A program made the translations under genes and the position numbers. From an uncultured Gammaproteobacteria bacterium (GTDB lineage Bacteria > Pseudomonadota > Gammaproteobacteria > UBA9214): 64,000 nucleotides of DNA. The notes beneath the pieces were generated by a model. The model had not been told where the DNA came from, ran no database searches, and saw only the letters and a program-made list of their open reading frames with translations. Location of the stretch: NCBI GenBank assembly GCA_963701455.1, contig CAVPAE010000007.1, positions 223,761 through 287,760 on the forward strand. Reading direction: 5' to 3'. Positions 38,069 to 60,264 of this stretch are shown here, in pieces (position 1 is the stretch's first letter; each line of letters starts with the position of its first letter).

Positions 38069-40145
38069 GACGATTACCGGATTCTGCAGCCACGGACCGT
38101 TATTACGCTCCTGTTCAGCCATTGCTGCATGTCTGCTGTTTGCCTGCCTCTTCGCACCATCTGCCGCCGCCACCGGGGAGTTTGATGAAATACGCGCCGC
38201 CATCCGGGTGCGTGACTTTGGAAAGGCCATCCCCCTGCTTGAAACCCTGGCAAGCTCGGGCAACCCCGACGCCCAGTATCAACTTGCCGCCTTGTATCGC
38301 GCAGGCTCCGGCGTTGCAAAGGATCACGAAACCGCATTTTACTGGCTGGACAAGGCCGCACACCGGAATCACAGGCAGGCCCAGTACAACCTGGGCGTTA
38401 TGTATGAATATGGATGGGGAACGCTGGCAAGCGCGGCAGCTGCAGCCGACTGGTATGAAAAGGCCGCCGCACAGGGCCACCCGATGGCGCAGGAAAAGCT
38501 TAACGAGAGTGATATAGCCGCACGCCGCACAAGAGATAATACGCGGCCTGGCGAAGCACCCGACCCGGACCTGTTACTGCGGCGGGCCGTGACAAGGGGC
38601 GATGCGCGGTCGGCCAGTGAAGCCATCAAGGCCGGCGCCAATGTGGATGCAACTGACAAATACGGCAGAACCGCGCTCATTGATGCCGCCGAACAGGGAT
38701 TTACTGAAATCGTCGAGCTGTTGATAAGCAATAATGCCGACATCAACCACGAGGATGCCTATCGCAACAGCGCACTGCTCCTGGCAACCGGCAATGGCCA
38801 TTCCGATACGGTCAGGAAACTGCTCACTGCCAATGCAGACAGCAACGCCACGGACACAAATGGCAACACCCCGTTGATGATCGCGAGTGGAAGGAATGAT
38901 GTAGAGATTGTCCGGGCATTGATAGCACAGGGCGCACGCCTTTACGGGAAAAACACCACGGGTGATTCTGCCGCTGATATCGCGGCCCGCAAGCGGCATG
39001 CTGAGATACTGAAAATCCTGCAGGCGCGTGGCGCCAATCCTGAAAAGCATTTTGCCCAGAAGAAGGCGACGATCGCCAAACGCCTTGCCATGCAGAATCC
39101 TGACCCGGCATCCGGATCCGGTGGCAAGGAATCATCACAGCCATATGCAGGCTGGTCAGCGCTGATGGAGTCTGCCTGGCGCGGCCAGGAAGAAATCGTC
39201 CGGGAACTGCTGGACCGGGGCGTCGATATCAATAGCAGGGATGATCAGGGCCACACTGCCCTGACGCGCGCAGCCAGCAAGGGGAACAGCAAGATTGTGC
39301 AGCTGTTACTGGAAGCCGGCGCCGATACCGGTGTCACCCGTGACGATGGCATGACCTTGCTCATGCTGGGCACTGCATCGGGTGATGCCGACACGGTCAC
39401 GTTGCTGCTTGCAAGGGAGCGCAATATCAACGCAAGGGATACCGATGGTTGCACTGCCCTCTGCTACTCGGTCCGCAACGGTGACACGGATATTGCCAGC
39501 CTGCTGTTGCAGCATGGTGCCGACAGCAACCTGGCTCTGAATGACGGCAGGACGGTCCTGATGCTGGCGGCTGAAATGGACACACCGGAGATACTGGCTC
39601 TGCTGCTCGCAAACGCACCCGCGGTCAACCAGCCGGACAAGACCGGCCTGACTGCCTTGTCATACGCGGTTATCAAGGGACACGAAAAGAATGCGCGCAT
39701 GCTGCTGGAGCATGGCGCGAAGCCAAACATCAGCGACTCGAAAAAGCGCACCCCGCTTACGCTTGCCGCCACGGGTAAAAACACAAATATTGTCGACCTG
39801 CTGATCAAGCACCGGGCTGACATCGCAACAAGCACCAGCGATGGTAATACGCCGCTTATTCTTGCAGCCAATTCCGGGAATACTGCCATCGCCGGCCGTC
39901 TGATAAAAGCAGGAGCAGATATCAATGTGCGCAACAATAATGGAAACACAGCCCTGATGCTTGCTGCCGCAAACAATCATGTCGACATCGTCAGGATCCT
40001 GCTGGAAACCGGCGCCAGGGCGGGAATCAGGAACAACAATCGCAAAAGCGCCAGCGACCTGGCCGAGGCCTCGGGAAATACGGAAACACTTGCCGTCCTT
40101 GAAAAGCACCGCAGTAGCGGGCTATGGTCATCCAGCTGGTTCTGA
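38055..40145 (+). CDS. secreted Sel1-repeat + ankyrin-repeat (about 15 ANK) protein
   Basis: Signal peptide. Sel1-like units (AQYQLAALYRAGSGVAKD, AQYNLGVMYEYGWG). Then repeated G.TALM.AA..G...IV..LL..GA..N units through the C-terminus. Overlaps the upstream gene by 14 nt. Confidence 0.8.
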   Translation: MARSKTITGFCSHGPLLRSCSAIAACLLFACLFAPSAAATGEFDEIRAAIRVRDFGKAIPLLETLASSGNPDAQYQLAALYRAGSGVAKDHETAFYWLDKAAHRNHRQAQYNLGVMYEYGWGTLASAAAAADWYEKAAAQGHPMAQEKLNESDIAARRTRDNTRPGEAPDPDLLLRRAVTRGDARSASEAIKAGANVDATDKYGRTALIDAAEQGFTEIVELLISNNADINHEDAYRNSALLLATGNGHSDTVRKLLTANADSNATDTNGNTPLMIASGRNDVEIVRALIAQGARLYGKNTTGDSAADIAARKRHAEILKILQARGANPEKHFAQKKATIAKRLAMQNPDPASGSGGKESSQPYAGWSALMESAWRGQEEIVRELLDRGVDINSRDDQGHTALTRAASKGNSKIVQLLLEAGADTGVTRDDGMTLLMLGTASGDADTVTLLLARERNINARDTDGCTALCYSVRNGDTDIASLLLQHGADSNLALNDGRTVLMLAAEMDTPEILALLLANAPAVNQPDKTGLTALSYAVIKGHEKNARMLLEHGAKPNISDSKKRTPLTLAATGKNTNIVDLLIKHRADIATSTSDGNTPLILAANSGNTAIAGRLIKAGADINVRNNNGNTALMLAAANNHVDIVRILLETGARAGIRNNNRKSASDLAEASGNTETLAVLEKHRSSGLWSSSWF

Positions 40146-40247: not shown

Positions 40248-41318
40248 TTATGCTGGCTGAAGCTGCGCGATCGGCATGGAAGCGCGAATTGTTGTCCCTT
40301 CTCCATCTCCACTGGACATGGATATTTTCCCATCGACGAGTTCAATTCGTTCCCTCATACCACCGAGCCCCGCTCCCCTGAGAGAATCGTCTACAGACAG
40401 AGCGTCCTCAAGACTGAACCCGACCCCGTTATCCTGCACGGTCAATTCCAGAAAGTCGTTTATCCTGTGCAGACTGATGAGGACCTGATCTGCCTTGCTG
40501 TGCCGGGCCACATTGTTAAGTGCTTCCTGCACTACCCTGTAGACCACGACCTTCAGATTGTCCGCTATCTCGTCATCAGTTATTACAATGTCGCTGTGAA
40601 CCTGGATACCCGGATTGGCATCCTGAAAATCGCGCCGTAACCAGGTAAGTGTCGCCGAAAGGCCCAGATCATCCAGCATGGATGGCCGCAATCGCATGTA
40701 GATATTACGTACTTCCTCAATAGTCTCCTGAACAACAGGAACAAGAATCCTCGACATTTCAGCAGGGTTCAATGCTTCGTCAACCGATTCGTGCAGGGCG
40801 TGCTCAATCCTGAACTTCATCGCAACCAGTGTCTGGCTTACATTGTCATGGAGATCCTTCGCGATCCTGCGTCTTTCATTTTCCTGTGCGGCCAGCAATT
40901 GCGCCGAGAGCAGGCGCAGTTCTTTATCGGATTTACGTAACGCCTCTTCTGTTTGAGCCTGTTCTGCAATTGCATTTTCAAGTTTCTTGTTGGTATCAAG
41001 CAATTCCCGGGTACGATCCTGCACTCGATGTTCAAGATTGTCGTATGCCCGGGTCAAGGCCTCTCTTGCCTGATCGGCGTCGTTCATACTGACAAAAGCC
41101 AACCTGGCTGGAATTATCAGCGCGACCGTTGTGAAAATCAGTGTAGTGACAACATATTCCCAGCGCTCGTATAACGGCTCTGGGTGATAAAACTCGTAAA
41201 TGTGTGGTACCACCAGATCCTCAAGGTAAAACTCCCAGAAAGCACACAGCAACGTCACTCCTGCCAGGATCAGCAGAAACAGCAACATGAGGCCTCCAAG
41301 GCGACTTCTCACTGCCAC
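40248..41318 (-). CDS. membrane sensor histidine kinase, HisKA_3 (NarX/DesK-like) type
   Basis: Two N-terminal TM helices. H-box LHDNVSQTL after LAAQENERRRIAKD. HATPase_c at the C-terminus. No response regulator is adjacent. Confidence 0.8.
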   Translation of the reverse strand: MAVRSRLGGLMLLFLLILAGVTLLCAFWEFYLEDLVVPHIYEFYHPEPLYERWEYVVTTLIFTTVALIIPARLAFVSMNDADQAREALTRAYDNLEHRVQDRTRELLDTNKKLENAIAEQAQTEEALRKSDKELRLLSAQLLAAQENERRRIAKDLHDNVSQTLVAMKFRIEHALHESVDEALNPAEMSRILVPVVQETIEEVRNIYMRLRPSMLDDLGLSATLTWLRRDFQDANPGIQVHSDIVITDDEIADNLKVVVYRVVQEALNNVARHSKADQVLISLHRINDFLELTVQDNGVGFSLEDALSVDDSLRGAGLGGMRERIELVDGKISMSSGDGEGTTIRASMPIAQLQPA

Positions 41319-41590: not shown

Positions 41591-42073
41591 TCATGGCACC
41601 AGCCAGACGGGCTCACGGTGACCAGAGAGGTCGACGAGATACCCACCTCTTGAGAGAACCCGCTGACCGGGTGTGATACCGGCGCGGAGATACAGGGGCA
41701 GATAGGCGGTGAGTGTTGACGAGTGGTTGAGCAGGTCCAGGAGGTAGTCGCGGGAAATGTAGAGACCCATGTGTTTCGCGCCATCGGCAAAAGCGAGGCA
41801 GGCAAAATAGGCCAGCGCCTGATGCCGTTCTTCCCGGATCGGTATACCTCTTGCCCGGGTCCAGGCGCGGAAGCGCTGCAGCGACGGGTCGGGCTCACCG
41901 GGAAGCGCGGAGAGGTGAACCACCGGTGTCCGTGCCCGCAAGGCGTCGGGCACATCTACCCACGTCGCACCGAGCAGGGTCGGTGACAGAAATACCGGCG
42001 CCTCCCCGTTACTGAAACCCGGTTCTGCCGCCATGCGTCGGACACCAGCTGCCCTTCTCGGCAAGTGCTCCAT
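41591..42073 (-). CDS. truncated paralog (C-terminal ~150 aa) of the cytochrome-c/periplasmic-binding-protein fusion at 42986-44707; possible gene remnant
   Basis: WTRARGIPIREERHQALAYFACLAFADGAKHMGLYISRDYL...GGYLVDLSGHREPVWLV aligns with WLKVRGIPATNLAIQSRMYFLGWMLPDAIKHMRGEFYRDYF...GCYIVQLSGDENPELIKV in the larger gene. Confidence 0.5.
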   Translation of the reverse strand: MEHLPRRAAGVRRMAAEPGFSNGEAPVFLSPTLLGATWVDVPDALRARTPVVHLSALPGEPDPSLQRFRAWTRARGIPIREERHQALAYFACLAFADGAKHMGLYISRDYLLDLLNHSSTLTAYLPLYLRAGITPGQRVLSRGGYLVDLSGHREPVWLVP

Positions 42074-42233: not shown

Positions 42234-42917
42234 TCAAAGTAAAGAAGGATCTCTCCGGGGATCGGTCTGTCTTGTCAATGCCTGGTATTCACGCACCAGG
42301 TCACCGGCACTCGCAAAACCCTCCATGCGAACCCAGCCTGTTTGCGGTGCAGCATGCATGAATGTCAACGGTATGTGATTCATCTTGTCGCGCCGGTATG
42401 CATCAAAAGCTTTCAGCACCGCCACGATGTCTTCACGATCCCCGGTCAGAAACGTCCAGCCTGTGCTGGCCTGGAAACGCTGCGCATATTCCCGAAGTTT
42501 TGCCGGAGTATCATGCTCAGGATCGATGGTAACTGAGATCATTCGAACATTATCCGCTTCAGGACCAAGGGCCTTCCGGGTCTGGGTAAAGCTGGCACTC
42601 AGGACCGGACAGATAGTTGTGCACGTGGTAAATATAAAATTCAGCATCACCGGCTCATTACCCTCCAGCATGTCGTGCAGGGAAACCTTCCTGCCGTCCT
42701 GATCGGTCAGTACGACATCGGGCACCTGGTATTCCTGTTCCTTGCGGACATAGCCCTTTTGCTGCAGCATCTGCCTGTGCTGCGAATGATCAACTCCATG
42801 CTGGTGCATATGGTGGGCAGCATCTCCGTCATCCAGGGCATGACCGGACGATGCCATGCCGAACGTAACCAGCAGGCCCATCATCCTGCCCGCAAACCTT
42901 ATTTTGTTATTCAGCAT
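42234..42917 (-). CDS. SCO1/SenC-family thioredoxin-like copper chaperone
   Basis: Membrane anchor, His-rich stretch (HHMHQHGVDHSQH), CxxxCP motif (FTTCTTICP), DPEHDT motif. Start at MLNNKIRF (42917). Confidence 0.8.
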   Translation of the reverse strand: MLNNKIRFAGRMMGLLVTFGMASSGHALDDGDAAHHMHQHGVDHSQHRQMLQQKGYVRKEQEYQVPDVVLTDQDGRKVSLHDMLEGNEPVMLNFIFTTCTTICPVLSASFTQTRKALGPEADNVRMISVTIDPEHDTPAKLREYAQRFQASTGWTFLTGDREDIVAVLKAFDAYRRDKMNHIPLTFMHAAPQTGWVRMEGFASAGDLVREYQALTRQTDPRRDPSLL

Positions 42918-42985
42918 GTCGTATTCTCCTTTTGTAATAACGTCCCTGCTTGTTGATATTCCCCGCGGCAGAGCCACAGCCGCTT

Positions 42986-44707
42986 CTAGTTGACGACCCA
43001 GTCACTCACTTTTATCAGCTCCGGATTTTCATCACCGCTGAGTTGCACGATATAACAACCTTTTGATGCATAGCGCTGACCAGGGCCAAAACTCAGCCGG
43101 GGAAACACGGCAATTGCTGCATCCTGATCTGTCATCATGTCGAAAGATTCCAGGAAATAGTCCCGGTAGAACTCGCCACGCATATGTTTTATGGCGTCCG
43201 GCAACATCCAGCCAAGAAAATACATCCTCGACTGGATTGCCAGATTGGTAGCCGGAATACCCCGCACCTTGAGCCATTGCTGCAGCGCCATCTGCCTGTA
43301 TTTATTTTCTTCGGGAAGGCTTTCCGGATAAGTCAGATAGAGAATGTTGCGCATCCCGGCGGGAACAAGATCCAGCCTCCCTTCCAGCAGGCTCGCAGAG
43401 GCAAACAGCATGGCGTCCCTCTCCTGATTCACAACCTGGCTACGCAGAGCTTCGGTGAGATCTTCCGCAGCAAGCCACAGCAGCACCACTGGCGCAGCTT
43501 GTTCATCCTCTCCTCGCCACCATGTCGCCGGCAGGGCACCGTTATCTTCGGGCTGCCGGAACTCCGGGACACCTCCTCCATATTCAGCCCAGGCATCCTG
43601 GAACCCTCGCGCAAGCATCTCCCCCTCGCTCCCCGGCCGGTACACCTGAATGACCCGGGTATCCGGCCCGACCTTCCCGGATGCCTGCAGAAACTTGGCC
43701 GCGGTTTCTCCCTCCTGGTAGAGCCCCCTGGAGAAATACAAGGTATACCAGTCGGATTTTGAAACTACCGGCTGATCAGTCACCGGGAAGATATTGGGTA
43801 TTTCATTGTCCTCGCAGAAGTCATGAATTGGCGCCCATCTGCCGGAACCAATCCCGCCAAGCAGGGCAAACACAGGTCGCAACCGGTAATAGGATTCAAG
43901 CTGCTCGCGCCAGGTTTCAGGCGGGCCGGTCAACTCCCACACATCGAGTGCGAGCTTGCGATAGGAACCGTACTGTTCGGTCTTGTAGAAAGGGCCCTGA
44001 CTGGCCCGGCGCAGATGAGGCCGGGTCTGGGTATTGCGCGCATCGATGTGCGCCTGCAGCACCGAAAGCATGGCATCACGATCAGTAGGGGACACACCAT
44101 CGGTCACCACGGTTGCAAAGCGCAGCGTCTCCCCGTCGAGCCCCGGAGCGTTGTTGACGGAAAGGTTTTTCAGGTAATGGATGAGGATCTCCATATCCCC
44201 CTCCTCCAGATCATAACGGGGCATTGCCTGGCTCAGCACCCTACCGTCCGCAGCCACACCGGTGCGCATAGCCCTGGCCAGGGTTTCTGCCGTATAGGGC
44301 GGACGGGCATCAACAGCCCGATTCTGGGACGGCAGCGACCAGCGCTCCGCAGCGCCCGGCCCGTGACCTTCGGCGGCAGGACTCCAGGCACCGGTACGCC
44401 GTCTCGGGACAAACAATTCCTTGCCATTGATCGGCCAGGTGACGATCGAACCCTCCACCGAGCCCAGTCCGCTGCGCTGGTGGCAGTTAATACAGGTAAA
44501 CATACGTCCATCCACGAATATATCCCCTGCGATGAGGGCCTGTACCGGTTCCCCGTCGGAGAGAATTCCTTCCCGGTAGAGACGCTCTCCCAACTGTAAG
44601 GTCGCATCCTCCTGAAGGCCCGCAGCCACAGCTGGACCCGGAACAAACGCGGTCCCTCCAACTACGCCGAGGAACAATAAACACCGGGTTATGTACCGTG
44701 GCATCAT
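42986..44707 (-). CDS. fusion of mono-heme cytochrome c domain (CINCH) with a type-I periplasmic-binding-protein (LivK-like) domain
   Basis: Signal peptide. A single CxxCH with a downstream Met-rich cytochrome c fold region. The C-terminal ~350 aa has the PBP-like alternating alpha/beta pattern. Confidence 0.65.
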   Translation of the reverse strand: MMPRYITRCLLFLGVVGGTAFVPGPAVAAGLQEDATLQLGERLYREGILSDGEPVQALIAGDIFVDGRMFTCINCHQRSGLGSVEGSIVTWPINGKELFVPRRRTGAWSPAAEGHGPGAAERWSLPSQNRAVDARPPYTAETLARAMRTGVAADGRVLSQAMPRYDLEEGDMEILIHYLKNLSVNNAPGLDGETLRFATVVTDGVSPTDRDAMLSVLQAHIDARNTQTRPHLRRASQGPFYKTEQYGSYRKLALDVWELTGPPETWREQLESYYRLRPVFALLGGIGSGRWAPIHDFCEDNEIPNIFPVTDQPVVSKSDWYTLYFSRGLYQEGETAAKFLQASGKVGPDTRVIQVYRPGSEGEMLARGFQDAWAEYGGGVPEFRQPEDNGALPATWWRGEDEQAAPVVLLWLAAEDLTEALRSQVVNQERDAMLFASASLLEGRLDLVPAGMRNILYLTYPESLPEENKYRQMALQQWLKVRGIPATNLAIQSRMYFLGWMLPDAIKHMRGEFYRDYFLESFDMMTDQDAAIAVFPRLSFGPGQRYASKGCYIVQLSGDENPELIKVSDWVVN

Positions 44708-44919: not shown

Positions 44920-46596
44920 CTAGCGACACGCCCGGTTCTTGCGGCAGCCTGAATCAAGACAATCGACAAGCCCGTCACCGTCGTTGTCGAGACTGTCAGA
45001 GCATGTGCCGCCCTTGCCTTCCACACCACCGCCAGTGCCACCCCCACCGGTGTCACCGCCTCCGTCACCTCCGGGGACCGGGCAGGACTTACCTTTCAGT
45101 CTGTCCTTACCGTCGCAGTCCTGGTCGATGCCGTCCCGCTTGATATCGCAGGCATCGGGGTTGATAGCGGCGTTGCTGTCATCACAGTCCGGTAACGTTC
45201 CGCAGTTTAACTCGGCATAGAAATTATCACTGTCGTTATCCGTACATGGGGGGGGCGGCGGATTGCTCAGCAGAGCGGATGCCGCGACCACGTCGACCAG
45301 TCCGAAACCGGAGTCGTTATCCGCACCGGCCTGGCCGATGTCCATGGCTGAATCCTGCAGGGATTGTTCGAGTTCGGCCACGCTGACACCGGGAAAGGCA
45401 CCGCGCAGCAGTGCCAGCGCGCCCGCGACATGCGGCGCGGCGGCTGAAGTGCCGCTCACGGACACATAGGAATCCGGGAACAGTCCACCGGAGGTCAGGT
45501 CCGCTGTCCTGACGTTCACACCGGGCGCGACCACTTCCGGATACAGGGTCCCGCTACAGGCCGATGGTCCGCGCCCGCTGGTCGAGGCGATGTTCAGCGC
45601 AGCGTCTACGGCGCCAACCGCGAAACCATCTGGATTATTGGCCGGGCTTTCACTGGATGACCCTGACGGCCCCTTGTTACCGGCGGAAAATGCCACGGCA
45701 ATACCGGCAGCCTTGAGTACCTGAATATCTGTCTCGAATTCCAGGTAACACTGATCCAGCAGTTGCGGGAATCCCCAGGAATTATTGACCACGTGCGGCG
45801 CATCATCACTCGCCGGGTTGCCGTCGGGATCCAGCAGCCATTGGAACCCCTGGTGAATGCCGCTCAGCGAGGCTGTCCCGCTGTCGTCAAAGATCTTCAC
45901 CGCGATCCACTGCGCGCCGGGCGCCACGCCGATTGCCGTACCCCCGGCATCTCCACCAACCGCCAGTCCCATGACCTGGGTTCCATGACCATTCCTGTCA
46001 TGGGGTGAGGCATGCTCGCCATTGGGATCGAACCAGCTGTTGTTACCGCCACGCCAGCGAGGAGCCAGGTCCGGATGGTTCACATCAACCCCGGTGTCCA
46101 TACCCGCCACAACCATACCGGTTCCGGTGTAGCCCAGCCCCCAGAACTCCGGTGCACGTATTGCATCGAGATTCCACTCCGATGTCGTGGCGGTCGCCGC
46201 TGCCGGCGCCGGAGCCTGGACACTGGCATCAAGCGTAATACTGTCCACCCCCGGAAGTCCGAGTAACGGCTGAATGACATCCGCCCTGGCCGTCACAGCA
46301 AGGGCATTGATCGACCATAACTGAATGAGCCGTTTTGCCCCGTTCCCCTGCAGGAAGGCGATGGCTGGTCCCTGGCTGGCATTCGCCGTATTCCGCAAGG
46401 CCTGGATCAGCGCTGCCAGTTCGACACCCCTGCCCTGCCCCTTCCCTGGGAATGCCTCCAGATCCACACGTTCGGAAAATCTGACAATGAATGCCACATC
46501 TTTCCCGTCCTGGATGGCTTGTTGCACTTCCGCTGTCATGGTGGCGGCCTGCACTCCTGGCCCCCATGCGGAAACGCAGACCATGCCAAACAGCAG
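44920..46596 (-). CDS. subtilisin-like serine protease (S8) with C-terminal Cys/Asp-rich DxDxDG module
   Basis: Catalytic triad contexts: VAGMDTGVD (Asp), HGTQVMG (His), GTSAAAPHVAGA (Ser). The C-terminus has ...DIKRDGIDQDCDGKD..., a Gly-rich run and further Cys. The start is uncertain: the ORF 5' end (MRRNDGSGLVQ) is encoded by repeat C, so GTG about 46596 or ATG 46575 are more likely. Confidence 0.8.
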   Translation of the reverse strand: MLFGMVCVSAWGPGVQAATMTAEVQQAIQDGKDVAFIVRFSERVDLEAFPGKGQGRGVELAALIQALRNTANASQGPAIAFLQGNGAKRLIQLWSINALAVTARADVIQPLLGLPGVDSITLDASVQAPAPAAATATTSEWNLDAIRAPEFWGLGYTGTGMVVAGMDTGVDVNHPDLAPRWRGGNNSWFDPNGEHASPHDRNGHGTQVMGLAVGGDAGGTAIGVAPGAQWIAVKIFDDSGTASLSGIHQGFQWLLDPDGNPASDDAPHVVNNSWGFPQLLDQCYLEFETDIQVLKAAGIAVAFSAGNKGPSGSSSESPANNPDGFAVGAVDAALNIASTSGRGPSACSGTLYPEVVAPGVNVRTADLTSGGLFPDSYVSVSGTSAAAPHVAGALALLRGAFPGVSVAELEQSLQDSAMDIGQAGADNDSGFGLVDVVAASALLSNPPPPPCTDNDSDNFYAELNCGTLPDCDDSNAAINPDACDIKRDGIDQDCDGKDRLKGKSCPVPGGDGGGDTGGGGTGGGVEGKGGTCSDSLDNDGDGLVDCLDSGCRKNRACR

Positions 46597-46617
46597 CAGA
46601 ATCACCTTGAGGAGAAA

Positions 46618-46784
46618 CTGAACAAGTCCTGATCCGTCATTCCGGCGCATGCCGGACAAAAGTGCATGGCGCGTTGAACGCCCGGAGGGCGGCCCGCAGG
46701 GCGAGCGAAGCGAGTCATCCAGGGAAATCAACAAGCTGGACCCCGGCCTTCGCCGGGGTGACGACTTATTCAGGGTTTCCTTGA
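46618..46784 (+). repeat. ~167-bp interspersed repeat family C, full copy
   Basis: Direct repeat of 44743-44908. The two copies flank the protease gene. Confidence 0.85.
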
Positions 46785-46804
46785 GCTTCAGGCTTTTCAT
46801 GGCA

Positions 46805-47308
46805 TCACTCCACAACGATGTGCTCTTGCCTGAAGTCACCGATCACCAGGGTGACCTGATCTCCAGCCTTGACGGCACGGCCGGGATTGGCAAAGAACAT
46901 AAAATAGTTCCGGTCCACCTTGGCAAACTTCGGTGCCTGGCGCAGCGGCCCGATCTTGGCCGAGACCGGCACCTGCAGCTTGTGGCCGTTTTTTTCCACG
47001 ATCAGCTGCGGTTTAATCTTGCGGTCCATGATGGCAGCGGCCTTTTCCGGGTCCAGCATCCGGAACCGGAAATCCAGCATGTAATCAGCCGCGGTCCGGC
47101 GGATCCCGATGACACGTATCCCCCAGGGATCTCCGGGGTCTGCCTGTTCCTGCTCAGCAACGTTCGGCACTGCGACACTTGTTGCAAAGACCAGCTGTCC
47201 TGGCATAAACATGAACGCAAGCCCCAGCACCACCAGCAGGGCTACCGCGATTTGTACGGTATGGACGCATACCCCCAAGGTGATCCGCCTGGTCTGAGTC
47301 TGTTGCAT
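46805..47308 (-). CDS. membrane-anchored periplasmic hypothetical protein (167 aa)
   Basis: A single TM helix (IAVALLVVLGLAFMF) then a soluble domain. Lies between the MCO-like triad and the protease. Confidence 0.45.
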   Translation of the reverse strand: MQQTQTRRITLGVCVHTVQIAVALLVVLGLAFMFMPGQLVFATSVAVPNVAEQEQADPGDPWGIRVIGIRRTAADYMLDFRFRMLDPEKAAAIMDRKIKPQLIVEKNGHKLQVPVSAKIGPLRQAPKFAKVDRNYFMFFANPGRAVKAGDQVTLVIGDFRQEHIVVE

Positions 47309-47420: not shown

Positions 47421-49244
47421 TTATTTCAGGATATCCACCCGGACGGTAGCCTCATTCGAGGTCGCGTCGAGATCATCCATGACGGTGTAGCCGAGCGCAT
47501 CCGAGCCGCGCTTGCCGGCGGTCGGCGTGTAGGTGATTGTGCCGTTACCGTTGTTCACCGCAGCGCCCTTGCGCGGGTTGCTGGTGATGATCACGGTATT
47601 GGCGACAACCGTACCGTCGTCGGTGTCATTGGCGACCACATTGATGGTCACGGAGTTGGTGCTGGCACCGGTATTACGCATCACCGTGGCGTAGTCGTCG
47701 TTGGCTACCGGAGACTGATTACCTGGCGCCGCATTGACCGTGACTGTGACCGTCGCGGAGTCGACACCACCATTGCTATCAGAGATGTCATAGGTGAAGG
47801 TTTCGTCACCGGAGAATCCCGCCAGCGGGCTGTAGGTCACGGTATTGCCATCCGTCGTGGCCGTTCCACCATTATCCGTTGCACCTACCGCAGTTATCGT
47901 CAGCGCATCGCCATCCACGTCGGTATCGTTGGCCAGCACGTCGAGACTGTTGTTGATCGAATCCTGGGCTACGCCAAAGGGATCGTCGACTGCAACCGGA
48001 TCATCGTTGAGCGGCGTTACCGTTACGCTCACGGTCGCGGCATTGGAAATATTCCCTGCCGTATCACGAACCGTGTAGGTGAAACCGTCCGCCCCGCTGA
48101 AATCGGGACTCGGGGTATAGGACACGGTACCGTCGTTAATCGCAACAGCCTGACCGTTGACCGCCGGACTGGCGATCGCCACTGTTGCCAGATCAATCGG
48201 ATTCCCGACAGGCGTATCGTTTGCCAGGACGCTGATGCTGCTGCCTGTCGAATCCTCCGCCACGGACGACACATCATCGACCGCCGTTGGCCCGGGTACC
48301 GCCGCGGCCACCGACAGATTGGTGAGCATCCCGCTACGCAGACGCCGGTCATACACGGGGTAGGTACCATTGGCGGCCGGCGTGAAGATCGCATCCTTTG
48401 TCTTGCCAGCGGCCATCAACACCGTGTGCTGCACGCGCGGGAAGGGATAGACATTGCCGTCCTCTGCAACCAGGGTCATGTGCTGGCCCTGCAATACCAT
48501 GGCATGGTCTTCCAGGCCTGCATTGAGCAAGCGGACCAGTGTATTGCTGCCTGCTGTACCGGCAGGCAAAGGCGCATCACCGGGCACAAAGGGGGCGCCA
48601 TTGACCAGGAAATATTTCGGTGCATAGTTGATCGTGCTGGGATAGCTTGCTGTCCCGTAGGTGCCACCGGCCACGGCTGCGTGCAGGGCCGGATCGATCT
48701 CGCTGTACAACAGCGACACCTCGCTATCATAGGAAATACCCGCATAGGCCTCTCCGGTCTGCGCATCGTGCGTCACCGCGCCGTACAGGCCCATCTGCAC
48801 CTGCACCGCCGGGTGTGTACCACTCGAATACAGGAAGGTCCCCGGTTTGAGGTTGCTCCATGCATAGATCCCGGTGGCTGCAGGGAGCGTCTCGTGGGTA
48901 AACGAACGCACCCGCTGCCGGCCCTGGTCATCGGTAAAAAACACCGGTGTCATTGCCGCCTGCTGGCCGGAGATCACGATCGACACCGGACTGGCGAGTT
49001 CATTACGCAGGTTGACCGTGAGCGTAGTGTCACCTACCGGCACCGTCAGCTGCGGGCCCGGTACGGTTGGCGTGCATGGCACACCCGTGTCCAGCCCGTA
49101 GCCCCACATGGTTATCACTGTGCTATCCGGCATGGTCAGGGTCGTCGTGCCGGCGCAGAGATCGTAAGTCACCGCACCGGCCTGGCCGGCAGCCGTCAGC
49201 AGGGCGGTGAGTGCCACACCTTGTTTGATTGATCTTATGTTCAT
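47421..49244 (-). CDS. secreted cupredoxin/multicopper-oxidase-like protein with degenerate Cu sites + C-terminal tandem Ig-like (cadherin/VCBS-like) domains
   Basis: Signal peptide. N-terminal ~330 aa are paralogous to the 49266 and 50569 genes (MWGYG..PGP.L.V; LEDHAMVLQGQHMTLVAEDGN aligns with HPFHFHGNHVTLIGRDGR). There is no HCH motif. Three Ig-like repeats (VAEDSTGSSISVLANDT..., ...LDVLANDTDVDGDALTI...). The 641-aa antisense ORF is R/G/H-rich junk. Confidence 0.7.
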   Translation of the reverse strand: MNIRSIKQGVALTALLTAAGQAGAVTYDLCAGTTTLTMPDSTVITMWGYGLDTGVPCTPTVPGPQLTVPVGDTTLTVNLRNELASPVSIVISGQQAAMTPVFFTDDQGRQRVRSFTHETLPAATGIYAWSNLKPGTFLYSSGTHPAVQVQMGLYGAVTHDAQTGEAYAGISYDSEVSLLYSEIDPALHAAVAGGTYGTASYPSTINYAPKYFLVNGAPFVPGDAPLPAGTAGSNTLVRLLNAGLEDHAMVLQGQHMTLVAEDGNVYPFPRVQHTVLMAAGKTKDAIFTPAANGTYPVYDRRLRSGMLTNLSVAAAVPGPTAVDDVSSVAEDSTGSSISVLANDTPVGNPIDLATVAIASPAVNGQAVAINDGTVSYTPSPDFSGADGFTYTVRDTAGNISNAATVSVTVTPLNDDPVAVDDPFGVAQDSINNSLDVLANDTDVDGDALTITAVGATDNGGTATTDGNTVTYSPLAGFSGDETFTYDISDSNGGVDSATVTVTVNAAPGNQSPVANDDYATVMRNTGASTNSVTINVVANDTDDGTVVANTVIITSNPRKGAAVNNGNGTITYTPTAGKRGSDALGYTVMDDLDATSNEATVRVDILK

Positions 49245-49265
49245 GTCTATTCCCCCGCCCTGCGT

Positions 49266-50540
49266 TTATGGAATCGGAACACCGTTGGGCTCGACGATCA
49301 TCATGGTCATCATGCCGCCCGGAAAGATGTCGTTGTTGGCAAGTTCTTTCTCTGCATGGGAATGCCACATGAAGAACATGCCCCCGTCCAGGTTCAGACC
49401 GCCCTCGCCCGGCGGCAGGTCACCAAACTGACCCAGGAACGGGCTGCCGCGGTAGAAGCCACCAAAGGTCATGTCCTGGATCGCCGGCAGTACCACCGGT
49501 AACTTCTTGCCGTGATCCGGCGCGTATTCGTTGGGTTCCAGCGGGTCGCCGTTTTTGTGGCCGTAGATGTCCCAGCCGAGCTTGTAACCGGTCCAGCTCC
49601 ACAGGGCATCATAGGTCGAGCCCGGCACCGCCTGCAGGGTGAAGTCGACACGCGCCAGGTCAGGTCCCGCTCCGGGCGTGCTCTCCAGCATGCGACCGTC
49701 GCGACCGATGAGGGTGACGTGATTACCGTGGAAGTGGAAGGGATGCAAGTCCCGTCCGGCGCTGATCACCCGCGCCAGTACTGTCTCACCGACATGCGTC
49801 CGCGGCAGGATGTTGTAGGGCTGGTTCGGCAGCCACGGGGCATATGCATCCGCCATGGTATCCGGACCATTGCGGCCGTTGATGAACCACAGCACCGCCT
49901 TGTGTTCGCTGTTGTCGATGACATCGTACAGTTCCAGCGAGGCGTAGTAATGGACCATCGGGTCCATTTCGGTGAGCAGGAACAGGTATTCCTGGTCGAA
50001 CGCCGTGTCCGGATGATTGTAGGCCTGGTTAGCAGCAGCAGGCCGGACGATGATGGCGCCCAGCAGGCCCATCTCGACCTGCAACTCCGGGCGCGTGCCG
50101 CTGTTGTACAGGTAGGTTCCGGGATTACTGGCGGTAAAGGTGTAGGTCACCTTGTCCGCTAGCGCGGGCCCGGTACTCTCCTGGGTCAACAGTCCCGCTG
50201 AGCCGCCGGTTGCACTCACCCCCTCCTGACCGGGAAATACCAGCGACACCGGCATGTTCGGCACGCCGAGCGCATTGGTCAGGTTGATGGTAATGGTATC
50301 GCCCTGGTCGACGATCAGCGTCGGCCCGGGATACTGCATTTCGCCGTCATCCAGCGCGTAACCCCAGACCAGCAGGCTGTCACCGTCCGGCGTGGAGATA
50401 ATGGCCGGTTTTGCAGTGAAGTCGAAGTTCGTTCCGGTGACGCCGTCGATGGCCGCCTCGGTCCTGGCACCCGCCAGGGACATCAGCAGCAGGGCAAATC
50501 CCGCCAGCCAGTGTCCGGTTTGCAGTGTTTTCGTATTCAT
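49266..50540 (-). CDS. multicopper-oxidase-like protein lacking the type-1 Cu cysteine (HSH instead of HCH)
   Basis: Signal peptide. HPFHFHGNH fits the HxxHxH motif. FMWHSHAE occupies the position of the HCH motif with Ser replacing Cys. Confidence 0.7.
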   Translation of the reverse strand: MNTKTLQTGHWLAGFALLLMSLAGARTEAAIDGVTGTNFDFTAKPAIISTPDGDSLLVWGYALDDGEMQYPGPTLIVDQGDTITINLTNALGVPNMPVSLVFPGQEGVSATGGSAGLLTQESTGPALADKVTYTFTASNPGTYLYNSGTRPELQVEMGLLGAIIVRPAAANQAYNHPDTAFDQEYLFLLTEMDPMVHYYASLELYDVIDNSEHKAVLWFINGRNGPDTMADAYAPWLPNQPYNILPRTHVGETVLARVISAGRDLHPFHFHGNHVTLIGRDGRMLESTPGAGPDLARVDFTLQAVPGSTYDALWSWTGYKLGWDIYGHKNGDPLEPNEYAPDHGKKLPVVLPAIQDMTFGGFYRGSPFLGQFGDLPPGEGGLNLDGGMFFMWHSHAEKELANNDIFPGGMMTMMIVEPNGVPIP

Positions 50541-50568
50541 GGACTTATCCCCCGGTTCCGGTCTGTTG

Positions 50569-51828
50569 TCATAACCCGATGTGGATTTCGGTCATCATGC
50601 CGCCGAAATCCTCGTCGTTGTTGCTGAGATAATTCAGGTTGGTGGTGTAGAGGAAGTAGGTCCCCGGCGCCACGCCCGCTGTATCGATAATTGCGTCAAC
50701 CGACTCGCCCCCGCCCAGCGTCACCGAAGCGGTGTCGTAGTACAGTTCCTCGCCGCTGGCCACGCCGCCGCCTTTCAGGATGCGCGCGCCGGTGCCCACC
50801 ACCTTCATGGTCAGCCCCAGGGTAGTCAGGGTGTAGTAGCGGGTGACGTTCAGGTTGGAGATGCGCAGCAGGATCTTTTGCCCGGCAGTGGCCTCAATCC
50901 GTGAACTGACCGGCTGGGAGGTGCTGAGCGGGCTAACAGCAGTTGGGAAATCCCCAGCTCTGACAGGATTGGCGCCACTCTCCAGTGTGTGCGGAAAGTC
51001 GAAGGTACTGGCATCGGCGGTATCAGGGTAGCCGCGGCCGTTCAGCATGGCATAGCGGTCGGTCATGTTGGCAAACGGCAGCGGCTGGGTATTCATGCTG
51101 GCATCGTGAAAGTCCGGATCGAAGGAACCGATCTGGATGGGAAACTCGACGTCATAGCCGGTTGAACCGTCGGTGTCGTTGTACACAAACTTGTTATAGC
51201 CACCAATGGTGGTCCCGTTCTGTGCCGGCCTGACATAGAGGTTGCCCAGCATGCCCATCTGCATGTGCTCGGTAGCCTCGACATGACAGTGATACATGTA
51301 GGTGCCGGGCTCCGCGAGATTGTAGTAATAGGTCACGCTGGCCCCCATGTTGATGGAGATGGTGGCATCCGGCACCCCGTCGAAGATATCCGAGGCGTTC
51401 GGGAAACCGTGGAAATGCACGGTATGCGGATCGGCCAGATCCGGACGCATCAACATGCCGTAGTTGGTCAGCGTCAGGTAGAATTCCTTGCCCTCGTCCA
51501 GCACGATGGTCGGCGCTGGAAAGTTTGCTGCCAGAATGCTCGCATCGAGTGCCTGGTCATGGGGCACACCCGTCAGGTCGACGAAGCTGAACATGTACTG
51601 CAGCCTGCGGATGTCATCGGACATGCTGACAAAACCGTCCCCGGCGCCCAGGTGCATGCACCTCACATTCGCGGTTGACTGTCCCTTGTGCATCGCCTTG
51701 TCAACTACGGCATCGCCATCGGTATCACCGGGACACTGCACCAGGGCCGCGGCACCTGCCAGGCCCGGCAATCCCGTCAACAGCAACAGGAGTGCAGCGG
51801 CAAGTGGATTTACGTGGTTGTCTTTCAT
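50569..51828 (-). CDS. multicopper oxidase with intact type-1 copper motif
   Basis: RBS GGAGGA lies 7 nt before ATG 51828. Signal peptide MKDNHVNPLAAALLLLLTGLPGLAGAAA. HTVHFHG, then YMYHCHVEATEHMQMGM (HCHxxxxHxxxxM). C-terminal cupredoxin domain ends FGGMMTEIHIG. Confidence 0.75.
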   Translation of the reverse strand: MKDNHVNPLAAALLLLLTGLPGLAGAAALVQCPGDTDGDAVVDKAMHKGQSTANVRCMHLGAGDGFVSMSDDIRRLQYMFSFVDLTGVPHDQALDASILAANFPAPTIVLDEGKEFYLTLTNYGMLMRPDLADPHTVHFHGFPNASDIFDGVPDATISINMGASVTYYYNLAEPGTYMYHCHVEATEHMQMGMLGNLYVRPAQNGTTIGGYNKFVYNDTDGSTGYDVEFPIQIGSFDPDFHDASMNTQPLPFANMTDRYAMLNGRGYPDTADASTFDFPHTLESGANPVRAGDFPTAVSPLSTSQPVSSRIEATAGQKILLRISNLNVTRYYTLTTLGLTMKVVGTGARILKGGGVASGEELYYDTASVTLGGGESVDAIIDTAGVAPGTYFLYTTNLNYLSNNDEDFGGMMTEIHIGL

Positions 51829-57022: not shown

Positions 57023-57516
57023 CAGCGTTCCCCCAATCTGTTTTTCGGTTTTTCTGGCTGGCCACCACACGGCGACGCTACAGATCCATATTCCCTACAC
57101 ATCAGTCAGTTACTGCACAGATTCCGCAACATTCGATCACTACAGGTACTGTGACAAAACCAACTACTCCGGCAGCACTACAACACTTGTGGGGTAACTG
57201 TAGGCGGATTGAGTCTCAAAGAGAGGTAGTTCAACACCGTATTTCACGGCACCAATGCACGATAAATCAGGTAGGGTATTCCGGTAGCTTCAGGCTACTG
57301 CACCGGGTTTCTGCGCCTGGAATTCAGCCCGGATAAATGGCACGGACCAACCCGGCAAGGGACAGAACAAGGGACGAGTAAACGCCATGCGCCTGGCCAC
57401 CGATAATCAGGGGGATATATTTGCAGGAATGGAACGACAAGCGTCGTTAATGAAAGCGCACTGCTACTAGAGGTAAAAGAAACAGCCCTGCCAGGCCGAA
57501 ACGGAACGATCCCGAA

Positions 57517-57924
57517 TCAGTGGCGCAGGCTTTTGCTTATGGTCCCCTCGACACGGGCCAGTATATCTTCTATGCAGGAGTCGTCTCCCTTTGAGAGAAA
57601 ACAGTCCGCGCCGTTCCGGAAGGCCTCCTGACGATACTCGGGCAGATCGTAGCTGGTAAGAATAACGATCACAATGTAGTCATACACCAGCTTTATCTTT
57701 TTGGTCACCTCCAGTCCATTTTCTCCAGGTAACTGGATATCCATAAAGATAATATCCGGACGCAGATACTCAACCTTACTCAAGGCCTCTCCTCCATCTC
57801 CAGCCTCGTCAACACCAATCAACGGGAAGTACGAGAGCAATATATCCGAGAGTGAATTTCGGAATGTGACATTGTCTTCAACAAGCAGCGCATGGAACAT
57901 TGATGCCTCCTCAGCCGAATGCAT
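57517..57924 (-). CDS. single-domain response regulator (CheY-like receiver)
   Basis: LLVEDN...DIIFMDIQLPGENGLEV...ILTSY...K. Start is either ATG 57924 or 57900. Confidence 0.75.
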   Translation of the reverse strand: MHSAEEASMFHALLVEDNVTFRNSLSDILLSYFPLIGVDEAGDGGEALSKVEYLRPDIIFMDIQLPGENGLEVTKKIKLVYDYIVIVILTSYDLPEYRQEAFRNGADCFLSKGDDSCIEDILARVEGTISKSLRH

Positions 57925-58173: not shown

Positions 58174-60264
58174 TTAACCAGTGAATCCCGGGCACTTGTT
58201 GTAGCGCCTGCGAAATAACTGACCCACCAGTGATATCAGCAGCAGGACATACAAAGTCGGATCAAGCACGGCACCGGGCCTGACACTGCAGCCACCGCCC
58301 CCACCCCCTCCGCCGTTATTTACCAACGCATTTGCATTTGCATTGTCAGTGGTAACTGACACCGTGTCGGGCGCACTGCCCACCATCCCGTCGTTGACGA
58401 TCAACTGCGCCACATAGGTACCGGGCAGATCTGCCACAAAAGCAGGATTGACTGTTGTTGCATTCGACAGCGTCGCTGTGCTGCCCGCCGGCACACTCGC
58501 CAGCGACCAGGCATAAGTCAGTCCATCACCGTCCGCATCATACGAGCCACTGCCGTCCAGCGTCACGGTATCGCCCACCAGCACCGACTGGTCCGCACCG
58601 GCAGCGGCCACCGGCGCGGAATTATCGGTGCTGATACTCACGCTGTCAGGCGCACTGCCCACCATCCCGTCGTTGACGATCAACTGCGCCACATAGGTAC
58701 CGGGCAGGTCTACCACGAAGGTGGGCTTGACTGCCGCGGCATTGGACAGCATGGCCGCGCTGCCCGCCGGCACACTCGCCAGTGACCAGGCATAGGTCAG
58801 TCCATCACCGTCCGCATCATGCGAGCCACTGCCGTCCAGCGTCACGGTATCGCCCACCAGCACCGACTGGTCCGCACCGGCAGCGGCCACCGGCGCGGAA
58901 TTATCGGTGCTGATACTCACGCTGTCAGGCGCACTGCCCACCATCCCGTCGTTGACGATCAACTGCGCCACATAGGTACCGGGCAGGTCTACCACGAAGG
59001 TGGGCTTGACTGCCGCGGCATTGGACAGCATGGCCGCGCTGCCCGCCGGCACACTCGCCAGTGACCAGGCATAGGTCAGTCCATCACCGTCCGCATCATG
59101 CGAGCCACTGCCGTCCAGCGTCACGGTATCGCCCACCAGCACCGACTGGTCCGCACCGGCAGCGGCCACCGGCGCGGAATTATCGGTGCTGATACTCACG
59201 CTGTCAGGCGCACTGTCCATCTTCCCGTCGTTGACAACCAGCTGCGCCACATAGGTACCGGGCAGGTCTACCACGAAGGTGGGCTTGACTGCCGCGGCAT
59301 TGGACAGCATGGCCGCGCTGCCCGCCGGCACACTCGCCAGTGACCAGGCATAGGTCAGTCCATCACCGTCCGCATCATACGAGCCACTGCCGTCCAGCGT
59401 CACGGTATCGCCCACCAGCACCGACTGGTCCGCACCGGCAGCGGCCACCGGCGCGGAATTATCGGTGCTGATACTCACGCTGTCAGGCGCACTGTCCACC
59501 TTCCCGTCGTTGACAACCAGCTGCGCCACATAGGTACCGGGCAGGTCTACCACGAAGGTGGGCTTGACTGCCGCGGCATTGGACAGCATGGCCGCGCTGC
59601 CCGCCGGCACACTCGCCAGTGACCAGGCATAGGTCAGTCCATCACCGTCCGCATCATGCGAGCCACTGCCGTCCAGCGTCACGGTATCGCCCACCAGCAC
59701 CGACTGGTCCGCACCGGCAGCGGCCACCGGTGGATTATTGCCCTGACTAACCAGCTGGATTTCAGGCGTGTAGGCCCACAGGGTGGCATCCTCGCCACCT
59801 GGTGGATTCCTGTACGTCACAACGATATTACCGTCAGCACCCGGCGCAACTGGCGACCCATCGATAAACGTGCCGCTGAACAGATAGGCAGCGCGATAAG
59901 TCAACACCACGGAATTGACACGCGACGGCGGGTTGCCACCCTCGTACTTTAACTGCAATACGCTCTCGACATTCCCTCCCCCGGCGTCGAAGATGCTGTA
60001 TTCCGTCAAGCCGGCGCTGACTACACACCCGTTACATAACGAGGTGGCTGGAAACAGCGGCTGGCCTATATCGACCTGCTCATAGTCGCCAGCAAGGTTG
60101 GTGAAATCCCAATCATAGGTTACCGTCCGCTGAACCGTATCTACCGTCGTCGTGATCGTCACACCATTCGACATCATCGCGGTCATGGCCGCGGCCGATG
60201 CAGCACCAGCCAATCCTACACATAGCAATAACAGTAATAGTTGAACTCTTGTTATTAGCCTCAT
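58174..60264 (-). CDS. secreted protein with 5-6 tandem PKD domains and a C-terminal GlyGly-CTERM/PEP-CTERM-like sorting tail
   Basis: Signal peptide MRLITRVQLLLLLLCVGLAGAASA. Repeated 93-aa unit APVAAAGADQSVLVGDTVTLDGSGSHDADGDGLTYAWSL... (PKD signature). C-terminus reads NNGGGGGGGGCSVRPGAVLDPTLYVLLLISLVGQLFRRRYNK. Confidence 0.8.
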   Translation of the reverse strand: MRLITRVQLLLLLLCVGLAGAASAAAMTAMMSNGVTITTTVDTVQRTVTYDWDFTNLAGDYEQVDIGQPLFPATSLCNGCVVSAGLTEYSIFDAGGGNVESVLQLKYEGGNPPSRVNSVVLTYRAAYLFSGTFIDGSPVAPGADGNIVVTYRNPPGGEDATLWAYTPEIQLVSQGNNPPVAAAGADQSVLVGDTVTLDGSGSHDADGDGLTYAWSLASVPAGSAAMLSNAAAVKPTFVVDLPGTYVAQLVVNDGKVDSAPDSVSISTDNSAPVAAAGADQSVLVGDTVTLDGSGSYDADGDGLTYAWSLASVPAGSAAMLSNAAAVKPTFVVDLPGTYVAQLVVNDGKMDSAPDSVSISTDNSAPVAAAGADQSVLVGDTVTLDGSGSHDADGDGLTYAWSLASVPAGSAAMLSNAAAVKPTFVVDLPGTYVAQLIVNDGMVGSAPDSVSISTDNSAPVAAAGADQSVLVGDTVTLDGSGSHDADGDGLTYAWSLASVPAGSAAMLSNAAAVKPTFVVDLPGTYVAQLIVNDGMVGSAPDSVSISTDNSAPVAAAGADQSVLVGDTVTLDGSGSYDADGDGLTYAWSLASVPAGSTATLSNATTVNPAFVADLPGTYVAQLIVNDGMVGSAPDTVSVTTDNANANALVNNGGGGGGGGCSVRPGAVLDPTLYVLLLISLVGQLFRRRYNKCPGFTG
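58310..59700. repeat. tandem array of five near-identical 279-bp units (PKD modules) inside the CDS
   Basis: Antisense ORFs 58819-59064 and 59098-59343 give 80 of 81 identical residues (one HPVVDDQ/LPVVDNQ-region difference) 279 bp apart. The coding repeat is 93 aa. Confidence 0.85.

Follow-up and report, generated by a model that had tools for sequence, protein, structure and literature searches.

Three tandem cupredoxin genes and their copper ligands

The window analyzed here is a stretch of 64,000 nucleotides (nt) from an uncultured gammaproteobacterium (GenBank assembly GCA_963701455.1, contig CAVPAE010000007.1, positions 223,761 to 287,760 of the forward strand). It contains three tandem genes, designated B, C, and D, that encode proteins with two cupredoxin domains each, and these lie directly downstream of a gene for a very large secreted protein, designated Giant (Table 1). 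A first-pass annotation of this locus had proposed that the three were same-strand paralogs, and this was confirmed by the minus-strand open reading frames (ORFs), by Pfam, and by BLASTP. The Pfam matches of B were Cu-oxidase_3 (1.5e-15), Cu-oxidase_2 (1.2e-12), and Cu-oxidase (2e-6); those of C were Cu-oxidase_3 (6.3e-12) and Cu-oxidase_2 (4.8e-6); and those of D were Cu-oxidase (1.6e-5) and Cu-oxidase_3 (1.9e-4), both barely over the gathering score. C and D were 30% identical across both domains (E = 3e-29), B and C 29% (E = 8e-11), and B and D 25% (E = 5e-5), and a merged alignment of the three families showed that they are collinear over two domains. Each is a separate ORF with its own stop codon, ribosome-binding site, and signal peptide. 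The gaps are short (Giant-B 61 nt, B-C 28 nt, C-D 21 nt), and a scan found no minus-strand terminator-like site within Giant-B-C-D; there was one just 5' of Giant, at 57483-57498. The start codon of B is the ATG at 51828, with an AGGAGG ribosome-binding site 7 nt upstream.

The ligands of the type-1 (T1, or blue) copper and of the trinuclear cluster (TNC) found in multicopper oxidases (MCOs) were distributed unevenly over the three proteins. Domain 1 of B contained a full T1 site and four TNC histidines, and its domain 2 contained no ligands. In C, domain 2 contained four TNC histidines (an HxH motif and WHSH) and domain 1 none, with SLVFPGQ and NSGT in their place. Neither domain of D carried copper ligands. 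In the merged alignment, domain 2 of B, domain 1 of C, and both domains of D had conserved non-ligand substitutes, for example pvSivFPGq and Y.SGT..LQvEMGL. Thus B has six His, one Cys, and a Met, C has four His, and B and C together have exactly ten His and one Cys. The eight cluster histidines were incomplete in every single chain and complete as the sum of B (H138, H140, H180, H182) and C (H269, H271, H393, H395). As read from these sequences, the B/C ligand set is split and complementary rather than decaying, and D alone is truly copper-free.

These results support some parts of the first-pass annotation and change others. Its suggestion that the site in B is incomplete and might require a partner agrees with the four of eight cluster histidines that B carries, and its description of D as lacking ligands and bearing three Ig-like domains agrees with Pfam (three Big_9/cadherin-like domains, 2.7e-45) and with the ortholog alignment. 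The T1 site that it called intact in B is intact, with its His, Cys, His, and Met invariant in 80-81 of 81 orthologs, but the quoted spacing of HCH-x4-H was incorrect: it is HCH-x5-H-x4-M, as in the type-C two-domain MCOs. The annotation's overall inference, one catalytic oxidase plus two degenerate scaffolds arising by stepwise loss of ligands, did not hold, as domain 2 of C contains exactly the four histidines that B is missing. Not all three proteins are canonical MCOs, and taken together they carry the full set of trinuclear ligands.

Table 1. Positions of the genes, domains, and copper-ligand motifs of the cluster in the window
Feature	Position	Strand	Read from
Response-regulator receiver protein, stand-alone, 5' of Giant	57517-57924	minus	
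Giant, 1726 aa, secreted, beta-sandwiches and right-handed beta-helix	51890-57070	minus	
B, two-cupredoxin subunit, 419 aa, Sec signal peptide	50569-51828	minus	
B motif HTVHFHG: H135, T1; H138 and H140, TNC	51406-51426	minus	translation
B motif HCHVEATEHMQMGM: H180 and H182, TNC; C181 and H188, T1; M191 or M193, axial	51250-51291	minus	translation
C, two-cupredoxin subunit, 424 aa, Sec signal peptide	49266-50540	minus	
C motif HPFHFHG: H269 and H271, TNC; H266, vestigial T1 position	49725-49745	minus	translation
C motif WHSH: H393 and H395, TNC	49356-49367	minus	translation
D, 607 aa, whole gene	47421-49244	minus	
D core, two cupredoxin domains, zero copper ligands	48300-49244	minus	
D appendage, three Big_9/cadherin-like Ig domains	47421-48299	minus	
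E167, membrane-anchored, ~165 aa, conserved	46805-47308	minus	
S8 subtilase, C-terminal Cys-rich repeats (MopE-type, acidic double-disulfide)	44920-46839	minus	
MofC-like protein, monohaem cytochrome c domain (CINCH) fused to periplasmic-binding-protein-like domain	42986-44707	minus	
SCO1/SenC copper chaperone (CTTIC...H)	42234-42977	minus	
HisKA_3 histidine kinase, often adjoins the cluster in other genomes	40248-41318	minus	

Relationship to the two-domain multicopper oxidases

The closest sequences to B and C in the PDB were type-C two-domain MCOs: the Nitrosomonas europaea blue copper oxidase (3G5W), the metagenomic mgLAC (2ZWN), and an Arthrobacter enzyme (3GDC). Like B, C, and D, these have two cupredoxin domains per chain, and like B they have the T1 site in domain 1 with the HCH-x5-H spacing. 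HTVHFHG of B aligned with the domain-1 motif HTIHWHG, and HCHVEATEH of B with HCHVNVNEH of 3G5W and 2ZWN. HPFHFHG of C aligned with domain-2 HAMHSHG (2ZWN) and HAIHTHG (3G5W), and MWHSH of C with the domain-2 cluster ligands FHDH (2ZWN) and IHDH (3G5W). This mapping onto reference sequences identified the motifs of B as domain-1 motifs and corrected the placement in the first-pass annotation: the motifs of B are N-terminal and those of C are C-terminal. HPFHFHG and HSH are present in C as that annotation stated, but HSH is not an HCH motif that lost its Cys; because it aligns with the HDH ligands of 2ZWN and 3G5W, it is the normal cluster motif of domain 2. We know of no type-C two-domain MCO with a Cys in domain 2.

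Structure prediction agreed with this relationship. The AlphaFold2 models of B (mean predicted local distance difference test, pLDDT, 78.7; predicted template-modelling score, pTM, 0.80) and C (pLDDT 80.8, pTM 0.80) had a two-cupredoxin fold, and their best whole-chain Foldseek matches were the trimeric two-domain MCOs 3G5W, 2ZWN, 3GDC, and 7RAB, together with NirK trimers (template-modelling scores 0.70-0.73 for B and C, normalized to the target). Two-domain laccases are homotrimers with the active site at the interface of two monomers (PMC3192119; also the description of 9CCK in PMC11761707).

Assignment of the three proteins to known classes gave a mixed result. Cupredoxin domains of the MCO superfamily were found by Pfam in B, C, and D, and the models of B and C matched MCO structures, but the T1 site of an MCO (His, Cys, His, axial Met) was found only in B. 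B has the two cupredoxin domains with T1 in domain 1 that are typical of type C, while C and D have two domains without T1. The four type-C motifs did not occur together in any one chain: B lacks the domain-2 pair, C lacks the domain-1 pair, and D lacks all of them. Nor are there six domains in a single polypeptide, as in ceruloplasmin or MnxG, but three separate ORFs, and there were no B-C-D fusions among the homolog hits examined. The NCBIfam equivalogs for CopA/PcoA, CueO, laccase, and ascorbate oxidase gave at best 43-48 bits, compared to cut-offs of 479-615 bits.

The presence of NirK trimers among the best fold matches, together with the activity of type-C relatives of nitrifiers on N-oxides (PMC11761707), raised the possibility that the genes encode a NirK-like copper nitrite reductase or an enzyme that handles hydroxylamine or NO. 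NirK is also a trimer of two-cupredoxin chains with T1 in domain 1 and the catalytic copper at the interface of domain 1 and domain 2', as proposed below for B, C, and D. However, NirK has a mononuclear type-2 copper held by three histidines, whereas B and C provide eight histidines in four HxH motifs, indicating a trinuclear cluster. B has the MCO pattern of HxxHxH plus HCH and not the H-x4-H and HC of NirK, C contributes four histidines and not one, and most of the hosts are not nitrifiers. A NirK identity was rejected on the ligand patterns, and the NCBIfam NirK models scored 31-35 bits with a cut-off of 296 bits; a nitrite reductase or related activity is extremely unlikely.

Conservation of the gene cluster

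A search of 185,579 species, each represented by one genome, identified relatives of B in at least 338 genomes, and an HMMER search of the full library yielded 276 protein clusters at 50% identity (E<=1e-30). Eighty loci, in which B was 56-77% identical to that of the window, were retained for comparison; relatives in metagenome-assembled genomes of the Thiohalomonadales were ~76% identical. The retained loci came from Gammaproteobacteria (Thiohalomonadales, Methylococcales, Sedimenticola, Thioploca, Amphritea), Betaproteobacteria (Thiobacillus, Gallionella, Rhodoferax), and the Desulfobacterota, Nitrospirota, Myxococcota, Phycisphaerales (Planctomycetota), Acidobacteriota, Bdellovibrionota, and Binatia. 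The hosts include iron, sulfur, and methane oxidizers, sulfate reducers, Nitrospira, myxobacteria, and plant-associated Burkholderiales.

The ligands were conserved almost without exception in loci from more than eight phyla. Each ligand in both motifs of B was invariant in 80-81 of 81 orthologs, and those of C were invariant in 75-76 of 76 (HPFHFHG in 76, WHSH in 75). In other words, the split of the type-C motifs over different chains was consistent in ~80 orthologs of each gene. No conserved ligand pattern was found across the D orthologs. D was itself 40-55% conserved, with degenerate motifs of its own, and we take it to be under selection.

Gene order was conserved to a similar degree where the contig extended far enough for neighbors to be counted. 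C directly followed B in 74 of 75 loci, the lone exception being a frameshifted C, and D directly followed C in 69 of 69. Giant was 5' of B in 64 of 66 loci; in an acidobacterial locus (L049), one of the two exceptions, it came after D, and the same order was found in L061, which is also acidobacterial. E167 came next in 57 of 59 loci and the S8 protease was downstream in 44 of 53. SCO1 was present within 10 kb in 25 loci and the MofC-like cytochrome fusion in 24. The conserved order is therefore Giant-B-C-D-E167-S8 protease, often with SCO1 and the MofC-like cytochrome. The appendage of D varied by lineage, being absent, dockerin-type, or fused to Giant in lineages other than that of the window.

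A predicted heterotrimer with a split active site

We consider it likely that B, C, and D form an obligate heterotrimeric two-domain MCO, a six-cupredoxin ring in which the active site is split between subunits. The complex would contain one T1 copper and one TNC and would resemble a ceruloplasmin ring that had not been fused. Domain 1 of B would provide the sole T1 copper and, through HCH and HxH, half of the TNC; domain 2 of C, in the adjacent subunit, would provide the other half through HxH and WHSH; and D, a paralog without copper, would close the ring and bear the variable Ig-like tether domains. Because domain 1 faces domain 2 of the next chain in such trimers, a homotrimer of B or of C cannot build the cluster, while the interface between B domain 1 and C domain 2 can. 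A ring of three members cannot alternate two types of subunit, so D, which is always present, is a natural candidate for the third position. Electrons would enter at the T1 copper of B and pass over the Cys-His bridge to the cluster at the B/C interface, where O2 would be reduced to water. Such a complex would have arisen from a type-C ancestor by triplication of the gene without fusion.

The alternative that B is the sole catalytic oxidase, perhaps as a homotrimer, with C and D as decayed scaffolds or binding subunits, would account for the fact that the T1 site and the Cys are confined to B, and for the lack of ligands in domain 1 of C and in D. However, four of the eight cluster histidines are missing from B; the four present are all in domain 1, and domain 2 has none in any of the 81 orthologs, so that neither a B monomer nor a B homotrimer could form the trinuclear site. 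Furthermore, the four histidines of C are invariant and align with real domain-2 ligands, and would be needless in a mere scaffold. We regard an oxidase made of B alone as unlikely.

The heterotrimer would differ from known type-C enzymes in several respects. Those enzymes carry all four motifs in one chain and form homotrimers with three T1 sites and three clusters, each built from the HxH and HCH of domain 1 and the two HxH motifs of domain 2 of the neighboring chain. The same arrangement is proposed for B and C, but with the motifs over two chains and a third chain without any, a trimer could hold no more than one T1 and one cluster. The B-C-D proteins also have Sec instead of Tat signals, extra insertions (N-terminal in B, in domain 2 of C), and a giant partner protein. 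Ceruloplasmin, hephaestin, and the Bacillus MnxG are six-cupredoxin rings in which one domain interface holds the sole trinuclear cluster; they are single polypeptides with three T1 sites, whereas a B-C-D ring would consist of three polypeptides with one T1. On the available sequences, the cluster is best described as encoding a two-domain MCO of a new quaternary type within a conserved module of 6-10 genes that has been noticed before but not explained.

To our knowledge, the catalytic cluster of characterized MCOs lies within one chain or between identical chains. If the proposed heterotrimer is correct, the division of a cluster between two gene products, together with a third paralog dedicated to a copper-free role, would be a new quaternary solution, and any one of the genes expressed alone should yield an inactive protein. 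It has been proposed that six-domain enzymes evolved from trimeric two-domain oxidases, and the heterotrimer would be a concrete example of that route. No proposal of an MCO that is heterotrimeric, heteromeric, or split in its active site turned up in a literature search; the "heterotrimer" of Nmar_1354 is a proteolytic alpha-alpha-alpha' form of one gene product (PMC11761707).

Other conserved features of the subunits

All three subunits contained a His in a (D)PxxH motif of the inter-domain linker helix (residue 241 of B, 197 of C, and 188 of D, near 51106, 49950, and 48681), which was retained in 81 of 81 B, 76 of 76 C, and 73 of 77 D orthologs and is not a known MCO ligand. Related by pseudo-symmetry, these three histidines might together bind a further metal on the axis of the ring. 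Domain 2 of C contained a strongly conserved insertion of ~66 amino acids (aa) at residues ~320-388 (~49377-49583; WDiYG...DHGK...LPPGeGGLN), with H343 invariant. It was modelled with pLDDT <50, probably becomes ordered only on assembly of the complex, and may serve as an interface or substrate lid.

B had a conserved N-terminal extension at residues 30-70 (~51619-51741; vQCPGDxNGDA...kCMHLxAGDGF) with C32, C57, and H59 invariant, and this is the end that is joined to Giant in the fusion proteins described below. A metal site at Cys32/Cys57 was considered and set aside; a disulfide is more likely because the two residues are lost together in two variants (P0380 and P0384).

The Giant protein and gene fusions

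The giant beta-helix protein that the first-pass annotation placed beside the three genes is indeed encoded upstream, by a 1726-aa ORF with beta-sandwiches and a right-handed beta-helix. Giant and its orthologs contained SdrD_B, CarboxypepD_reg, SpaA, and TIG beta-sandwich domains in addition to the helix, and conserved Cys pairs, a composition which is that of a secreted adhesin-type protein as predicted from its domains. A profile search found no sequence relatives of Giant in the PDB.

Two types of gene fusion involved Giant. At least 17 of the best 150 B representatives were long proteins of 1750-2800 aa. Ten hits were compared by BLASTP, and eight consisted of a Giant homolog, 300-700 aa of linker domains, and then mature B. 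The B part started at about residue 26-35 (54 in P0414), i.e. without its signal peptide. One long hit, P0364, was different, as Giant was followed by a Cys/Gly-rich motif, a transmembrane helix, basic residues, and then an apparent B signal peptide; unlike P0367, P0369, P0373, and P0379, it may instead be two genes joined by read-through. The second type was found in Cupriavidus metallidurans CH34 (chromid NC_007974.2, L081), where a B-like gene (38% identity, HTVHFHG and HCH retained) was followed by a C-like gene (37% identity, HPFHEHGNH and MWHSH retained) and then by a single ORF of 2698 aa comprising a D-like protein, Ig domains, and Giant (32% identity over residues 71-1726), with an E167-like gene after it. 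By similarity, the same arrangement was present in Ralstonia and Paraburkholderia. Because two independent fusions join Giant to B and to D, Giant appears to belong to the oxidase complex.

The fusions also bear on whether B, C, and D act apart, for example as three homotrimers in which B is a blue-copper carrier, C a non-blue copper binder, and D an adhesin. Each gene has its own signal peptide and ribosome-binding site, and the homologs of D bear varied adhesin-type appendages, as would be expected if the three were independent. On the other hand, the adjacency of the three genes is near-perfect across phyla, the ligand tally is exactly complementary, and the fusions of Giant to B and to D place at least those two in one assembly. 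Separate action would also leave unexplained the conservation of eight histidines that never meet, and we assign it little probability.

Export and maturation

The signal peptides of the B, C, and D orthologs were of the Sec type. Tat RR motifs were essentially absent from these orthologs, in agreement with the first-pass annotation, which had seen no Tat signal in the window. Sec signal peptides imply that the proteins are exported unfolded and that copper is inserted outside of the cytoplasm. SCO1, in which the CxxxC...H motif was conserved, agrees with extracytoplasmic copper loading. B, C, and D would be exported by Sec and loaded with copper with the help of SCO1, maturation or assembly would involve the S8 protease and E167, and the complex would be anchored on the adhesin-like, beta-helical Giant. 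No relatives of E167 were found in Pfam or the PDB.

In C. metallidurans CH34, genes of a type II secretion system (T2SS), including the GspE ATPase, a secretin with STN/TPR domains, and a pseudopilin, were directly 5' of the B-like gene (L081 3616-11700). GspE-like genes were near the cluster in four other loci (L023, L047, L071, L077) and a secretin in a fifth (L012). This is some evidence that the folded complex is secreted across the outer membrane by T2SS, and it would be moved to the cell surface in this way in at least some lineages.

The copper chaperone suggests a different function, in which the module would serve copper sequestration, delivery, or resistance and would not carry out oxidation; the cupredoxin proteins would bind copper to store it or to pass it to Giant or other targets. 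The MopE-type Cys-rich motif of the protease, a weak NosD-like match in Giant, and the presence of a variant in the metal-resistant C. metallidurans are consistent with this. A full T1 site with HCH wiring and eight histidines is the signature of a catalytic MCO and not of a chaperone, however, and the hosts are mostly not metal-resistance specialists. The NosD match was short (45 aa) and weak, and Giant was not adopted as a NosD homolog. A copper-handling module seems distinctly improbable.

Related gene clusters and possible function

A similar gene cluster has been noticed in Sideroxydans lithotrophicus ES-1, in which Slit_1812-1818 includes three tandem MCO genes whose products are predicted to be extracellular and whose function was left open (He et al. 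2017, PMC5566968). Two of the proteins have MCO motifs, and the larger third has adhesin- and polysaccharide-lyase-like domains; levels of the proteins of the cluster were higher on magnetite than on Fe(II)-citrate, the counterpart of D was detected as a protein, and similar clusters were reported in Paraburkholderia and Ralstonia (2024-25 preprint, 10.1101/2024.09.20.614158). The occurrence in these two genera matches the D-Giant fusion variant. The function was left open in the preprint as well, and neither paper suggested that the active site is split. Like the cluster in the window, Slit_1812-1818 encodes three tandem cupredoxin proteins, small hypothetical proteins, SCO1, and a MofC-like cytochrome. 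The Sideroxydans cluster, likened here through the descriptions in those papers, is very probably the same variant as the Burkholderiales B-C-D. The Burkholderiales variant, as seen in C. metallidurans, has the same B-C-D logic as the window cluster but is ~38% identical, has D fused to Giant and a T2SS adjacent, and lacks the S8 protease in the stretch seen. If the heterotrimer is correct, work on the Sideroxydans magnetite cluster would need co-expression of B, C, and D, and probably of Giant and SCO1.

Other gene clusters show a more distant likeness. MofA-MofC of Leptothrix and OmpB-MofC-like-SCO1 of Geobacter also combine an extracellular MCO with a protein containing cytochrome c and periplasmic-binding domains, with SCO1 in Geobacter (PMC5566968). 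However, MofA and OmpB are large single-chain MCOs, stated to be non-homologous to the tandem triad (PMC5566968), and neither has a split site or a Giant partner.

The wiring from T1 through Cys-His to the cluster implies oxidation of a one-electron donor coupled to reduction of O2. The substrate would probably be a donor at or beyond the outer membrane: Fe(II), which may be mineral-bound, or Mn(II), or else the co-encoded cytochrome c of the MofC type, which is a candidate alternative or additional electron donor. An oxidase at the cell surface, with Fe(II) or Mn(II) as its substrate and perhaps in mineral-bound form, is suggested by the adhesin-like Giant, by the Ig and dockerin appendages of D homologs, by the neighboring T2SS genes, and by the induction of the variant on magnetite. 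Such a cell-surface role is plausible, and oxidation of metals or minerals is a possible rather than a probable function of the module. Given the host range, the function of the module is relevant to metal cycling in sediment and groundwater.

Several observations weigh against this interpretation or against parts of it. Both the geometry of B domain 1 with C domain 2 and the position of D in the ring are deduced from homologous trimers, and there were no B-C or C-D fusions among the hits. The substrate and location proposed for the complex are guesses. The proteomic link to magnetite concerns the ~38%-identical variant, which was likened to Sideroxydans by description. T2SS genes and multihaem cytochromes were near the cluster in a minority of loci only. 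Finally, many of the hosts are anaerobes (Desulfobulbaceae, Desulfuromonas) that have no obvious need for an O2-dependent metal oxidase. Because the hosts include many anaerobes, the module may instead have a protective O2-scavenging or a general matrix-oxidizing role.

The broadest interpretation is that these genes represent an unrecognized, widespread class of MCO: an obligate heterotrimer of three paralogs with its cluster across two polypeptides and a copper-free third subunit, mounted on Giant at the cell surface, oxidizing solid-phase or sorbed Fe(II) or Mn(II), and constituting an unfused intermediate between the homotrimeric two-domain oxidases and the six-domain enzymes of the ceruloplasmin type. 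As a whole this is put forward tentatively, as less likely than not.

Other features of the window

Several other genes in the window encode unusual proteins. A 160-aa ORF with no Pfam match (41591-42073, minus strand) had a C-terminus (…GITPGQRVLSRGGYLVDL…VWLVP) resembling the end of the cytochrome/periplasmic-binding protein of the MofC type (…PGQRYASKGCYIVQL…DWVVN), and it may be a truncated paralog of the latter. The protein encoded at 58174-60264 (minus strand, 696 aa) contained five near-identical PKD/K319L-like repeats of ~93 aa each, and its C-terminus, with a Gly run, a hydrophobic helix, and RRR, resembles a sorting signal. Another protein of 696 aa (38055-40145, plus strand) is secreted and, unusually for a bacterium, contains a long array of ankyrin repeats in addition to Sel1 repeats.

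Multihaem cytochromes were also encoded in the window. A 1258-aa protein (30071-33847, minus strand) had 49 CxxCH motifs, with MtrC/MtrF-like and cytochrome c7 repeats, and a 628-aa protein (33862-35748, minus strand) had 21 CxxCH motifs. Another MtrC/MtrF-like cytochrome was encoded at the start of the window (11-1741, plus strand). Giant multihaem cytochromes were found <=10 kb from the MCO cluster in four other loci as well (L070, L071, L077, L080), so that their proximity is recurrent, if not universal.

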